A stretch of 64,000 nt of DNA, from the sequence record OZ035799.1. One strand, given 5' to 3'. This DNA is from Justusliebigvirus alia. Shown one piece after another: positions 2,347-6,366 of the stretch. Numbering within the stretch: the stretch's first letter is position 1; every line of letters starts with the position of its first letter. The position numbers and the translations under genes were made by a program. The notes below the pieces were generated by a model, which made no database searches, was not told where the DNA came from, and saw only the letters and a program-made list of their open reading frames with translations.

Positions 2347-4977
2347 TCAATATCTGCCAGCGCCAAATACACCAAGTTTAATACCATTGATCGGTAAAGT
2401 GGTGCTTGTTGGTACTTTCTCTGTTGCAACACGGTTGATATCTATAATCTCCTGTACGGTTGTATTCCATTGTAAGCATTTAACACAACGGGTGTGCGCT
2501 ACATACAGTAGGTTTCGCTCTGCCTCTTCTAGTCCTACCCATTCACCAGTCTTTTTATCATAGTTGGAAGGAAAATCATTAGCAACAATAACCTGATCCC
2601 ACTCCAAACCTTTAGACTTGTGTGCTGTAGTCAGTGTGACTTTTGCTGTAGGGGAATTTCTATGCGTTCTAAGTGTATGTGCTATAGTGTTTGCCTTACC
2701 AGAAACTACGATGTTTAACAAGCGTTTAGCATCTGGATCAGCCTCTGCACACTCAACAAATTCATCCCAGTCTGCATAAGGTAATACAGTTTCATGTTTT
2801 ACTTTCTCAATATCTCCTCTCCGAAGAGCATTAACACTATCTACCATAGAGATAAAATCCCTGGTATCTACGTTAATAATAATTTCTTCCCCATCTGCAA
2901 TACGATCCATTGCCTCCATAAGCAAGGTTAAATTCTTGCGAAAGATGATAGTGTAAGGTTTTGTATAGTCTACAACATCTGATTTGTAGCTACCTACTAC
3001 AGTATCAAAGCCTTTACCAACCAAAGGATGACGCAAAGGTTCTTTATCACTTAAAATCATATTGGCAATGTTTGCCACTTTGGGGCCAAAACGGAAGCAA
3101 GCAGTTAATGGAAGCTCTGCCCCATACTTAGCTGTTTCAATCATCATATTAGAGCTACCTCTAAATTGATAAATACAGTTGTGGCTAAGAATTTCATTGC
3201 CAAAGAAGTTAGCAGTATCCTCTACTTCAATATCATAGTAGATACCCTCACTATCTACAATATCCACAATCTCTTCTGCTGTTACAGTATCACCATCTTT
3301 TACCAACACAGACATGCCTTTAAACAAACCCGCTGCCGGAATTAAGTTATATTTGGCAGTGTCTACAGAGGACATGCATTCTTTTAAAGATGCAAACGGA
3401 ACTATTTCAAGGATCTTTTGTGCAAAACTCAATGCTTCACAATAAGAATTGAAATATTTACGTACACGGTAACGACCTTCCAATTTAGCAACACTTACGC
3501 TTACACCTGCTTTAATGAGTGAAGCATAGATCGGCATTTCACTTTCTGTCCACTCAAAACTGACTTGTGTTCCTTTACAACCTTGTGCTCGCAAAGTCAC
3601 TGTTAACATTTTTCTTTCATCTACTGCACAATTGATGCTGTGCCAATGTGGATAAGCAAAATGATAGTCTTTATCCTCTAAAAGTTTAAAACCATTCTGT
3701 CCGAATTGTTCAAAGATGTTATTGATCCTTTCTTGATTAATGCCGCGTGAACTTGCTTCAAATACACAAGTAGGAATGCCATATTGTAAACTGTATGCCA
3801 TTTCTTTTTCCATAGCAGCTTCGCGATTTTCAACAATGTCCAACACCCATAATTTCTGTGCTTTTTCAGAACGTGTACGTTGCCCCAGTTTAGAAAAACC
3901 TTCTTTATCATCGAATTTGTTAGTGATCCCTACTCGGAAACCTAAATCTTTCCTCCACATTAGGTATACCACCATCTGGTCATCTTTCAGAACATAGGAT
4001 GAAGCCCAAATACGATGGTTATGTGTCATATCTAAAGTTTTACCTGTAGCAGTAATAATATTCCTACCTTTTGTACGTGTAGATAAAGTCTTATTTGTTA
4101 CTTTTCTAAATGTAACTTTACCATTAGAATAAGACTCTACCTTATCACCGATTTGCAGGTCTTTCATTGTAACCTGACCATTCTCGGTGTTAAGTACCGT
4201 GTTTTCCGACACACATTGGAATTCATCGCCAACTACCACAATTTGTTTTGCAGATTTAGCATTTCGCAGAATAGACAAGAATGCAGGGTTAACATCCTGG
4301 AATTCATCACCAAAAATAATATCATAACCAAGATCAGCACCAGATAATTCAAACAATTTTACATAGGTGTCATGCGTCATCAAAGTATCTGTGTTAGGAT
4401 CGATGCGCTCTCGCCACAATTGTTTTGCATACTTAACTACTTCTGTAATTAGTTTGTGTTCGTTAATACCTTTTCTTTTAATATCTGCAAGATGTACACC
4501 AGGAAAATGTTTACGGCTGATAAAAGGATCATCCGAAAATTCAAACTTACCTACGGTTTGCTTGATCATTAAACCAATCATAGCACGAGTTAAAAGTGTT
4601 TTCCCTCGTTTATCAATAAGATTATTAATCTTAAATTTCTTTGCTATCTCGCTACCTGTACCTGCAACGTTAACATACTGTCCTTCTGGTCGTGACAGTT
4701 TTGCACGTAAACGATGATCCAGGAATTGATAGCAAATAGAATGCAATGTACGGCATTCTACATTTAGTGGCATCTTACGTCGTGCTTCTTCTGCCATGCT
4801 TTTATTGAAAGCTAAGTAAAGAATGCGATCTTCTGTACTGTTAGCCAGCAAATAAAGTGTTGACGTTTTGCCTGATCCAGATTTAGCTTGGATAGTTAAA
4901 AAGCGATGGTCTGGAAAAGCCTCCTTAATAGCTGTTTGCTCTTCTGTTGGAGTGAAGCTCAACTCTTTCTTAGCCAT
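2347..4977 (-). CDS. SF1 (UvrD/PcrA-like) DNA helicase, intein-containing precursor
   Basis: Walker A AKSGSGKTST, motif II GDEFQD, motif III split as VVVGDEFQ / CIYQFRGSS by an inserted intein; start chosen at MAKKELSF (ATG 4977) directly after the upstream stop. Confidence 0.75.
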   Translation of the reverse strand: MAKKELSFTPTEEQTAIKEAFPDHRFLTIQAKSGSGKTSTLYLLANSTEDRILYLAFNKSMAEEARRKMPLNVECRTLHSICYQFLDHRLRAKLSRPEGQYVNVAGTGSEIAKKFKINNLIDKRGKTLLTRAMIGLMIKQTVGKFEFSDDPFISRKHFPGVHLADIKRKGINEHKLITEVVKYAKQLWRERIDPNTDTLMTHDTYVKLFELSGADLGYDIIFGDEFQDVNPAFLSILRNAKSAKQIVVVGDEFQCVSENTVLNTENGQVTMKDLQIGDKVESYSNGKVTFRKVTNKTLSTRTKGRNIITATGKTLDMTHNHRIWASSYVLKDDQMVVYLMWRKDLGFRVGITNKFDDKEGFSKLGQRTRSEKAQKLWVLDIVENREAAMEKEMAYSLQYGIPTCVFEASSRGINQERINNIFEQFGQNGFKLLEDKDYHFAYPHWHSINCAVDERKMLTVTLRAQGCKGTQVSFEWTESEMPIYASLIKAGVSVSVAKLEGRYRVRKYFNSYCEALSFAQKILEIVPFASLKECMSSVDTAKYNLIPAAGLFKGMSVLVKDGDTVTAEEIVDIVDSEGIYYDIEVEDTANFFGNEILSHNCIYQFRGSSNMMIETAKYGAELPLTACFRFGPKVANIANMILSDKEPLRHPLVGKGFDTVVGSYKSDVVDYTKPYTIIFRKNLTLLMEAMDRIADGEEIIINVDTRDFISMVDSVNALRRGDIEKVKHETVLPYADWDEFVECAEADPDAKRLLNIVVSGKANTIAHTLRTHRNSPTAKVTLTTAHKSKGLEWDQVIVANDFPSNYDKKTGEWVGLEEAERNLLYVAHTRCVKCLQWNTTVQEIIDINRVATEKVPTSTTLPINGIKLGVFGAGRY
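3178..4215 (-). other. intein (about 346 aa) inserted in helicase motif III
   Basis: Block A CVSENTVL at insertion start, block B MTHNHRIW, C-terminal blocks YDIEVEDTANFFGNEILSHN followed by +1 Cys; flanking exteins rejoin to GDEFQ-CIYQFRG. Confidence 0.75.
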
Positions 4978-4978
4978 T

Positions 4979-5455
4979 TCAACCTCTCTTAATTTGTTTA
5001 ACAAGCATAGGAACAAAATCTCGTTTTAAAATTTGTTCAATAATATGATCAGGTAGCTGTTGGAAATTATAATTAAAAGCTACTGTCTCACCTTTAGGTG
5101 TTTCTACCCGCACATATAACATGTTACGAAGTTTATCCACTTGTGCTGTATATTCTAAACCATGTAATTGATGCATTGCAAACATCAAATCATCAGTTTC
5201 AGTTTGGAATCTATCATTTGCTTGCATTAAGGACAAGGTAAAAGGTAGATTTTCCCTAAGAGCCACCTTCTTAGGAACTAGTGAAGGAAAATACTCACCA
5301 ATAACTTCCTGTGTAAGCTGGATACACTCTTTTTCAATTTGGTTTTGTTCCTTAAGTTCACAAACACTTTTTTGTAAAGTGTTAACCTCTTTTTGCAAAG
5401 CTGCTAGTTGAGCACTTAACTTTCTTTTTTGATTACGACCAAAACGTTTAGACAT
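4979..5455 (-). CDS. hypothetical protein
   Basis: 158 aa ORF, basic N-terminus with predicted coiled-coil character; no recognisable motif. Confidence 0.5.
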   Translation of the reverse strand: MSKRFGRNQKRKLSAQLAALQKEVNTLQKSVCELKEQNQIEKECIQLTQEVIGEYFPSLVPKKVALRENLPFTLSLMQANDRFQTETDDLMFAMHQLHGLEYTAQVDKLRNMLYVRVETPKGETVAFNYNFQQLPDHIIEQILKRDFVPMLVKQIKRG

Positions 5456-5463
5456 ATTTCCCC

Positions 5464-5979
5464 CTAGTAAAACCCTTTAACAATCTGTATTAACTCGGCA
5501 CAACGGTTGACCAACTTTTCCTCATACAATACACGTTGTGGCATATGTTGTATAATATACTCCATTTGCTCATGCCATGTCCACTTTTCTTTTTTGTCTG
5601 GGATAACATCACTAGCACGAGAATTATCTTTTAATGTTTGTATAATCCAATTGCTTGGAAAGTGCTCTCCACCTTTCTTAAATGGTTTATAGTGGCCTAG
5701 AGTGAATTGAGAATCCCCTGTTAGAGCACCCAATTTATTTAGATGGATAATCAAACTACGAAACACGTAGTATTCATAGATGTTATCCACCGTATAGCAA
5801 GCATAATATTTCAAGATGCCCTTATCTCGCGGATACTTACCAACATCCAGATTGCACCAGTTGACATTTTCTGGATCATAGTGGTGTTCCTTAAGCCATA
5901 TTTCTCTTTCATCAAAGTCTGGATATATTACCGCTCTGCTTACAGAGTCAACAAGTGGAGATTGAGCATCAAAAAACAT
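5464..5979 (-). CDS. hypothetical protein
   Basis: 171 aa ORF in operon context; no recognisable motif. Confidence 0.5.
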   Translation of the reverse strand: MFFDAQSPLVDSVSRAVIYPDFDEREIWLKEHHYDPENVNWCNLDVGKYPRDKGILKYYACYTVDNIYEYYVFRSLIIHLNKLGALTGDSQFTLGHYKPFKKGGEHFPSNWIIQTLKDNSRASDVIPDKKEKWTWHEQMEYIIQHMPQRVLYEEKLVNRCAELIQIVKGFY

Positions 5980-6000
5980 TATATTTTCCTTATTGGTTTG

Positions 6001-6366
6001 TTAAACGTTTTCTAAATCTTTTAAGGCATTACCCAACGTTAAAACAATAACATCGTTTGCTGCCTCTTCCCCATTAATATTGGTGAAATTTGGTGTGACA
6101 AAAGTAACCATATAAAACTCGTCCACCTGGAAGACAGCAATAACACCGTCCATCTTAACATCTTGACGAAATGAAAAACCAAGCATCTTCTCTTGCAAAG
6201 GCATATCCCCTTCCTTCATTACTGCCAGGGAGTTTTCAGGAATGTTATATTTATCTGCTCCGATGTAGATGTACGTAATGTTATCTTTATCGTGATGATA
6301 CAGGGTTGCTTTTTCCATATCTAAACCTGACAGATCAAATACGTTAATTTCTTGTGTAGTCTTCAT
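6001..6366 (-). CDS. hypothetical protein
   Basis: Start moved to ATG 6366 (MKTTQEINVF) preceded by GGAGAAT SD; longer track ORF would overlap the upstream gene by about 100 nt. Confidence 0.45.
   Translation of the reverse strand: MKTTQEINVFDLSGLDMEKATLYHHDKDNITYIYIGADKYNIPENSLAVMKEGDMPLQEKMLGFSFRQDVKMDGVIAVFQVDEFYMVTFVTPNFTNINGEEAANDVIVLTLGNALKDLENV

Follow-up and report, generated by a model that had tools for sequence, protein, structure and literature searches.

An intein with an uncharacterised nested domain in a UvrD-like helicase gene of Justusliebigvirus alia, and its transfer between phage genera

The helicase gene and its insert

The stretch of DNA considered here, 64,000 nucleotides from the phi92-like E. 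coli myovirus Justusliebigvirus alia (sequence record OZ035799.1; hereafter the window), carries on its minus strand a gene for a UvrD-like helicase of superfamily 1 (SF1) whose coding sequence (CDS) is interrupted by an in-frame insert. We consider this insert very likely to be a class-1 mobile intein lodged in motif III of a UvrD/FBH1-like helicase. Between the two parts of its predicted splicing (Hint) domain lies a nested domain of about 200 amino acids (aa), a candidate homing endonuclease of uncertain kind. The gene and the outer parts of the intein are laid out as follows, in window coordinates:

2347..4977, minus strand: helicase precursor CDS, encoding 876 aa (99 kDa) when begun at the ATG at 4977, with its stop codon TGA at 2347-2349
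4216..4977, minus strand: N-extein, 254 aa, with Walker A (AKSGSGKT, 4858-4887), motif II (DEFQD, 4291-4308) and motif III as far as the insertion point (VVVGDEFQ, 4216-4239)
3178..4215, minus strand: intein, 346 aa, 39.3 kDa, class 1 (Cys1 ... His345-Asn346 / Cys+1), delimited by its junction residues, by profiles and by the allele of phage Eryne
3985..4215, minus strand: Hint N-terminal part, intein residues 1-77, with block A (CVSENTVL, 4192-4215) and block B (MTHNHRIW, 4006-4029, including T64 and H67)
3178..3393, minus strand: Hint C-terminal part, intein residues 275-346, with blocks F and G (YDIEVEDTANFFGNEILSHN, 3178-3237)
2350..3177, minus strand: C-extein, 276 aa, with Cys+1 (3175-3177), motif III from the insertion point on (CIYQFRGSS, 3151-3177) and motif VI (TAHKSKGLEWD, 2596-2631)

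A previous sequence-only reading of the window had described an open reading frame (ORF) of 889 aa, which corresponds to the maximal ORF at 2347..5016 (minus strand) counted from its first TTG; the start annotated in relatives gives 876 aa here. That start, the ATG at 4977 with GAGAGG ahead of it, matches the annotated CDS of phi92 gp198 and of PaulScherrer bas60_0082. The same reading had taken the host protein for a UvrD-like SF1 helicase, and profile searches agree: the exteins match Pfam UvrD-helicase (8.8e-12), UvrD_C (1.1e-10) and AAA_19, the helicase matches PHROG phrog_1967 'DNA helicase' (E = 1.6e-156), and the best solved relative of the insert-free protein of 530 aa is the human F-box helicase FBH1 (1.6e-31). 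Walker A, a motif II of the form DExQ, a motif III of the form GDxxQxIYxFRG and motif VI are all present. Over the gene as a whole, identity to phage phi92 is 99.1%.

The window helicase stops 48 codons short of its counterparts in phi92, PaulScherrer and Eryne, at the TGA at 2347-2349, which results from three clustered substitutions (GGCAGATATTGA where relatives read GGCACATCTCGA). The 48 codons past this stop (2203-2346) are in frame and intact. Only one of 55 related records has the variant, namely OZ035770, whose sequence is the same as the window's, and the stop reflects a genuine truncation or else an error in base calling.

The splicing domain

The limits that had been proposed for the intein, 3178-4215 and about 346 aa, proved exact to the base. 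Cys1 of CVSENTVL is the codon at 4213-4215, the terminal ILSHN ends with the codon at 3178-3180, and the Cys codon at 3175-3177 follows; MTHNHRIW, YDIEVEDTANFFGNEILSHN and the split motif GDEFQ / CIYQFRGSS are likewise in place (here and below, a slash within a motif marks the insertion point). Aligned as a single sequence, the insert matches Pfam Intein_splicing over residues 8-346 with its centre looped out (E = 4e-8, 33.6 bits), scores 29.7 against Pfam Hint, a value equal to that model's cut-off, and lies above the cut-off of NCBIfam TIGR01443 intein_Cterm. Much stronger matches come from an alignment of 33 sequences, consisting of 32 whole inteins cut from relatives of the nested domain together with the window copy. 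All 33 match Intein_splicing (best E = 4.5e-17), and the profile built from them matches solved inteins at its two ends only (gp41-1 at 2e-17, and the DnaB, RecA, VMA and DnaE inteins), the matches in the PDB spanning profile positions 5-73 for the N part and 278-340 for the C part. As judged by these alignments, the resemblance to inteins is confirmed to be far beyond chance.

The columns that are invariant among the 33 members include C1, H67, H345 and N346, and D328 is nearly so. Features of class 1 are found at each expected place: Cys1, the T64-H-N-H67 of block B and SHN/C at the C-terminus; in the family the +1 residue is Ser in 77 members, Cys in 23 and Thr in 1. An AlphaFold2 model of the intein made on the 33-sequence alignment has a mean predicted local distance difference test score (pLDDT) of 92.8 and a predicted template modelling score (pTM) of 0.89, with pLDDT of 96-98 in the Hint N-terminal part, and a Hint fold is predicted. 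The canonical blocks A, B, F and G named in the sequence-only reading are thus backed by profiles, by the invariant residues C1, H67, H345 and N346, and by the predicted fold. A six-frame search of the window with the family profile returned no second intein.

Insertion site and intein-less alleles

When the helicase is aligned with UvrD of D. radiodurans, 'VVGDPDQSIYKFRGA' of UvrD pairs with 'VVGDEFQ/CIYQFRGS', and 'IHVDEYQDTN ... LLVVGDPDQSIYKFRGA' pairs with 'IIFGDEFQDVN ... IVVVGDEFQCIYQFRGS' of the insert-free helicase; the alignment runs across the junction, which places the insert between Gln and Ser or Cys in motif III. An insertion inside motif III (GDEFQ/CIYQFRGSS) had been suggested before, and it stands: motif III of UvrD aligns over the junction, and the DEFQD upstream is motif II.

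Naturally empty alleles place the insertion just as precisely. In phage Eryne, which belongs to the same genus, exactly 1038 bp are absent and the protein reads GDEYQ/SIYQFRGSQ with nothing between; the empty site of Eryne or of the intein-less phage DIJ07P1 is GTGGGTGACGAATATCAG/AGCATCTACCAGTTCCGT. Of about 132 records of related phages, 37-38 have the intein; it is lacking from about 95 related helicase genes. Between Eryne and the intein-plus alleles there are 10 differences at positions -27..-1 and 17 at +1..+51, and the genes are 97-98% identical elsewhere, which delimits one further feature:

3127..4242, minus strand: older foreign patch at the insertion site, extending beyond the intein by 27 bp on the upstream side (4216-4242) and by 51 bp on the downstream side (3127-3177), rich in substitutions when compared with the intein-less Justusliebigvirus alleles

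These substitution-dense flanks are a foreign patch that was brought in with the intein. Precise loss of the intein, which would leave an empty site with intein-type flanks, was seen in none of the 132 records, where the best single-piece match reached 90.3%.

These alleles also bear on a different view of the insert, as a permanent Hint-like domain kept in the mature helicase. In its favour, splicing is a property that we infer, and block F has an Ala in place of the usual His (TANFF). However, the insert interrupts an ATPase/DNA-binding motif that runs unbroken in every homologue without the intein, the nucleophiles and the His-Asn pair are invariant throughout the family, presence and absence are exact to the codon, and the phages that carry the insert are viable isolates. 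We regard a permanent insertion as very improbable, and treat the insert below as a splicing intein.

Transfer between phage genera

A record of movement comes from two sibling phages of another genus. The intein of Phapecoctavirus DIJ07P2 is 99.6% identical to that of the window, whereas the N-extein is 73% and the C-extein 80% identical. Compared with its intein-less sibling DIJ07P1, the helicase gene of DIJ07P2 is 95-100% identical up to the insertion site, and the same level of identity resumes from window position 2897 on. Between these two points lies the following tract:

2898..3177, minus strand: putative co-conversion tract, 280 bp directly 3' of the intein, in which DIJ07P2 is 97-100% identical to the window and 60-77% identical to DIJ07P1

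On the upstream side the junction in DIJ07P2 falls at most 3 nt from the insertion site, position -4 still being DIJ07P1-like. Read from these identity profiles, the DIJ07P2 helicase gene is that of DIJ07P1 with the addition of the intein and a 280-bp donor tract, a recent jump between phage genera. Such a pattern would result if the DNA were broken in or close to the empty site and repaired with one-sided co-conversion from an intein-plus donor, the break presumably being made by an endonuclease. The signature of a homing element is found in each of its parts, namely sporadic presence, an element more alike than its flanks and co-converted flanking DNA; and the idea that the intein is a useful marker of phage gene flow, which the sequence-only reading had put forward, gains in DIJ07P2 an explicit transfer between genera.

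We conclude that the element is a real, mobile class-1 intein and that it is probably active. Several points weigh against this conclusion. The single window sequence falls about 2 bits under the gathering score of Pfam Intein_splicing (33.6 vs 35.8), and the block F Ala departs from the usual residue. The premature helicase stop may mean that the host protein is impaired. In principle, the transfer into DIJ07P2 could be ordinary recombination in a co-infected cell rather than homing initiated by an endonuclease, and both splicing and DNA cleavage are deduced from sequence and model.

The nested domain

The centre of the intein, residues 78-274 (about 200 aa), is modelled by AlphaFold2 as three confidently folded parts (pLDDT >90):

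3766..3984, minus strand: central sub-domain 1, residues 78-150, beta-beta-alpha-beta-alpha (unit 81-145), the most conserved part, with VVYLMWRKDLGFRVGIT ... R113xxxE117 ... W123 ... E138
3619..3765, minus strand: central sub-domain 2, residues 151-199, two conserved helices (161-181; RGINQERINNIFEQFGQNGFKLLED) and a conserved P189
3394..3618, minus strand: central sub-domain 3, residues 200-274, beta-beta-alpha-beta-alpha (unit 203-271), the most variable part

Conservation was assessed in 110 family sequences with 23-98% identity to the copy in the window, and residues Y84, M86, G92, R94, G96, R113, E117, W123, E138, S142, P148 and P189 are conserved in at least 97% of them. Between the window and Klebsiella phage KP2025, the ratio of nonsynonymous to synonymous divergence (dN/dS) is 0.03 for sub-domain 1, 0.15 for sub-domain 2 and 0.28 for sub-domain 3, with 0.24 for the whole centre. 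These values indicate a nested domain that is clearly functional and under purifying selection. Sub-domain 1 is a candidate catalytic module, and sub-domain 3 a candidate DNA-recognition module. In the same comparison, sub-domain 3 (3394-3618) has dS of 0.98 and dN of 0.27, and the other parts of the intein have dS of 0.15-0.72 and dN of at most 0.034; such divergence suggests either a mosaic intein or fast-evolving DNA-recognition surfaces.

Two further ideas about the centre were examined and set aside. Sub-domains 1 and 3 have the same order of secondary structure, but an internal duplication finds no sequence signal. A hidden endonuclease in another frame or on the antisense strand within the intein is likewise rejected, the only ORFs there being of 59-85 aa and having no Pfam match.

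Relatives of the nested domain

An exhaustive HMMER search with the central region among 1.84 billion representative sequences found 1232 relatives at E <= 1e-3. These are cluster representatives, so that, at 50% identity, the family comprises no fewer than 1232 clusters; metagenomes contain it in abundance. Its members are found nearly exclusively in inteins that occupy conserved motifs of UvrD-like helicases. The best 150 of the 1232 proteins contain 162 copies of the domain (more than one copy in 11 proteins), of which 101 are in inteins at the same motif III site, 15 at a motif II site (VDE/CQD...) and fewer at two other sites, one of which looks like motif VI.

Some relatives stand outside inteins. 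P0002 (L007 4001-4798) is a free-standing nested-domain ORF of 265 aa with neither Cys1 nor His-Asn, and it lies on a phage-like contig directly upstream of an intein-less UvrD-like helicase gene whose motif III reads GDSYQ/AIYGFR. On its other flank, that helicase gene has a canonical GIY-YIG gene. Six metagenomic proteins (P0046, P0051, P0062, P0065, P0067 and P0137) are stand-alone, 328-366 aa long and homologous to the whole intein; in them Met replaces Cys1 and the terminal His-Asn is missing, and the Hint-like ends and the central domain are kept. They may be domesticated or free-standing derivatives of inteins.

Two loci show other arrangements. In Klebsiella phage KP13-16 (OP617741, L005 CDS 1706-5302) the orthologous helicase, 1198 aa long, has two inteins: the first is in the Walker A loop (GTGK/A...THN/T) and has the LAGLIDADG-like motif LLRGLMDTDGS, and the second is in motif III (GDKHQ/C...SHN/CIYGWRGS) and is 66% identical to the window intein. 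In L008, the contig of P0001, an intein-containing UvrD-like gene at 2997-6107 is split into four successive ORFs of 136, 207, 431 and 220 aa, and represents a copy in decay or else an assembly with many frameshifts.

What kind of enzyme the nested domain may be

The sequence-only reading had presumed a homing endonuclease in the centre and had found no clear LAGLIDADG motif, and the latter point holds: neither Pfam, nor PDB profiles, nor structure comparison gives a LAGLIDADG domain there, and the hallmarks of LAGLIDADG (DOD) homing endonucleases, LAGLIDADG helices (one or two) with an alpha-beta-beta-alpha-beta-beta-alpha fold, are lacking. Nor does the domain resemble the HNH class with its beta-beta-alpha-metal motif, having no Pfam HNH match and, among the 110 members, no conserved His or Cys in the centre; conserved residues of the PD-(D/E)xK and EDxHD (Vsr-like) classes are equally absent from these members, with no match in Pfam or the PDB. 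Profile and fold searches, which used the whole intein as query and were thereby blunted for similarities of the nested domain, returned no Pfam model and no solved structural relative for it. In BFVD the nested domain is common only to the phi92-type protein and two other viral inteins (TMq 0.57-0.60), one in a helicase and the other in a protein named adenine methyltransferase, and DOD inteins reach TMq < 0.31 only.

One possibility, which we put forward tentatively, is that sub-domain 1 is a highly divergent nuclease of the GIY-YIG superfamily fused to the DNA-binding sub-domains 2 and 3, in a manner similar to I-TevI but nested in an intein. In GIY-YIG nucleases a three-stranded sheet flanked by helices bears the GIY and YIG motifs at a distance of 10-11 residues, a conserved Arg, and Glu and Asn as catalytic residues. 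The beta-beta-alpha-beta-alpha order of sub-domain 1 is that of the GIY-YIG core, and conserved residues occupy the GIY-YIG catalytic positions: Y84 on strand 1, R94-V-G96-x-T98 on strand 2, R113xxxE117 on helix 1 and E138 on helix 2. With hhalign, sub-domain 1 aligns with the N-terminal domain of UvrC over 66 columns in register (P = 0.014), pairing VVY with GVY, FRVG with IYVG and E138 with the catalytic Glu; 3 of 120 column-shuffled controls reach that score, and none of them aligns more than 24 columns. Pfam GIY-YIG is also touched by one of 10 members (E = 0.12), in the matching region. I-TevI cuts away from its own insertion site and gives asymmetric co-conversion, which the tract in DIJ07P2 resembles. 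On the other side, the hhalign probability of the UvrC match is 3-4%, and an alignment of the I-TevI family gave nothing, with a profile that is thin (only 9 close I-TevI relatives). Arg stands in place of the second Tyr, there is no conserved Asn, and strand 2 is separated from helix 1 by about 9 additional residues. As a positive control, UvrC compared with phage GIY-YIG reaches only P = 1e-4 with the same thin profiles; the test thus has some power, and the match of sub-domain 1 is the weaker one. A distant relation to GIY-YIG is therefore suggested as a lead, not a result. No window ORF contains a GIY-YIG-like motif. A likeness of sub-domain 1 to AP2/ERF-type DNA-binding domains (W-x9-EAA-x-...-G) was also tried and rejected, the comparison with AP2 sequences giving P = 0.097 over 17 columns in hhalign.

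A nuclease with a fold outside the six described homing-endonuclease families is a somewhat doubtful reading. It would fit the lack of a whole-domain relative in the PDB or Pfam despite a confident model, as well as the finding that in BFVD only other inteins share the domain, those of the DOD type remaining far below. Charged residues are invariant, and the mobility signature of DIJ07P2 and the free-standing P0002 beside a helicase gene would suit an active nuclease. However, the null searches were made with the whole intein, a query with which the similarity of a small domain is harder to detect, and the weak GIY-YIG signal competes with a new fold.

The centre might also be no nuclease but a DNA-binding or structural remnant, the intein spreading passively by phage recombination or through a nuclease encoded elsewhere. 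Nothing in it can be recognised as the catalytic motif of a known nuclease, DNA-binding sheets, too, typically bear Arg, Trp and Tyr on their beta-strands, and the phages of this group recombine readily, as their mosaic identity profiles show. Yet purifying selection is strongest on sub-domain 1, the domain is conserved over 1232 clusters, two Glu residues are invariant, and the AP2-type comparison provided no support. A junction at most 3 nt from the insertion site, between flanks only 70-80% identical, fits a site-specific break better than a random crossover. As for a nuclease elsewhere, the upstream gene at 5464-5979 (minus strand), to which the phi92 record ascribes a predicted HNH endonuclease-like fold and which has no Pfam match here, is present in intein-plus and intein-minus genomes alike, and the neighbouring genes have no nuclease- or intein-related Pfam match. 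We hold a non-nuclease centre to be unlikely.

Weighing these alternatives, we propose with some reserve that the nested domain (residues 78-274) could be the catalytic and DNA-recognition module of an undescribed family of homing endonucleases, either a seventh structural family or a new branch of GIY-YIG, specialised on motifs II, III and VI of UvrD-like helicases.

A possible cycle of splicing and homing

After translation of the 99-kDa precursor, Cys1 would form a thioester that is attacked by Cys+1, and cyclisation of Asn346 would free the 39-kDa intein and religate a 60-kDa helicase with motif III intact. In a mixed infection, the nested domain of the free intein may then cut the intein-less motif III site of a co-infecting phage, and recombinational repair would transfer a copy of the intein, along with adjacent bases, to the allele that was cut.

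Comparison with known inteins and homing enzymes

PI-SceI, PI-PfuI, PI-PkoII and TliVMA are canonical class-1 inteins that contain a nested homing endonuclease; with them only about 131-133 residues, the Hint part, superpose, and their LAGLIDADG domain has no counterpart here. The mini- and split inteins gp41-1 and NpuDnaB lack a nested domain, and their hosts are DnaB-type rather than SF1 helicases. Bacterial UvrD, PcrA and Rep inteins share the host family. UvrD is listed among the 15 most frequent bacterial intein hosts, with 16 inteins (Novikova et al. 2016, PMC4760082), and the inteins of DnaB, PcrA and UvrD are placed at the P-loop in PMC5874633; the passages of these two papers cited here make no mention of the motif III site, and the term 'motif III' is absent from PMC4760082.

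The non-canonical actinobacteriophage inteins described by Gosselin et al. (bioRxiv 10.1101/2025.01.02.630785) are likewise phage inteins lacking an in-frame LAGLIDADG, with recent local transfer, but their endonucleases are HNH, antisense or out-of-frame LAGLIDADG, VSR-like or EndoVII-like, whereas the domain here is in frame, confidently folded and matches none of these. With the GIY-YIG enzymes I-TevI and UvrC, sub-domain 1 shares the order of secondary structure and the placement of Tyr, Arg and Glu, and its match to UvrC is weak; it differs in that this match is below usual significance, there is no structural match, it has neither the second Tyr nor the Asn, and no similarity to I-TevI is found. 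The six stand-alone relatives are reminiscent of yeast HO, a free-standing enzyme derived from an intein (PMC3384342), although HO is a LAGLIDADG enzyme and eukaryotic.

The intein itself is already on record. In GenBank, PaulScherrer and JohannJBalmer (BASEL; MZ501100, MZ501084) are annotated with an 'intein-containing UvrD/Rep family helicase precursor' and the intein as a mature peptide, whose span includes the +1 codon; PQ110661 has the label 'intein-containing UvrD', and the phi92 record speaks of '2 discontinuous domains'. The BASEL paper says only that inteins were identified in annotation (PMC8594841). According to a 2024 paper (PMC11162368), there had been no report of inteins in coliphages, its own intein being in a Kagunavirus minor head protein gene, and our search for literature linking 'intein' to these phage genera found nothing except that paper. 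The intein is thus known as a GenBank annotation and ordinary in kind, with no paper found that describes it; what is added here is the uncharacterised nested domain and a documented transfer.

Significance and notes on the phage records

The nested domain represents a large uncurated family with no solved relative and, if it is an endonuclease, would widen the repertoire of homing enzymes, which are of interest for genome engineering as long-site DNA cutters programmable by evolution; it would also explain how inteins colonised several SF1-helicase motifs. A ready natural system of culturable E. coli phages is provided by DIJ07P1 and DIJ07P2 and by the many sequenced phi92-like phages that have or lack the intein. 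Such pairs would allow intein homing, the length of the co-conversion tract and fitness cost to be measured.

The names attached to some of these records call for care. The record OZ035770.1, 'Justusliebigvirus alia', is intein-plus, and MN850632.1, the original isolate 'Escherichia phage alia', has the empty site; the species name alia thus spans intein-plus and intein-minus genomes. Five 'Campylobacter phage' records (MG065645, MG065689, MG065639, MG065656 and MG065650), with Campylobacter jejuni as the stated host, are 98% identical to phi92-like E. coli phages over the helicase gene, and their Campylobacter host labels look doubtful.

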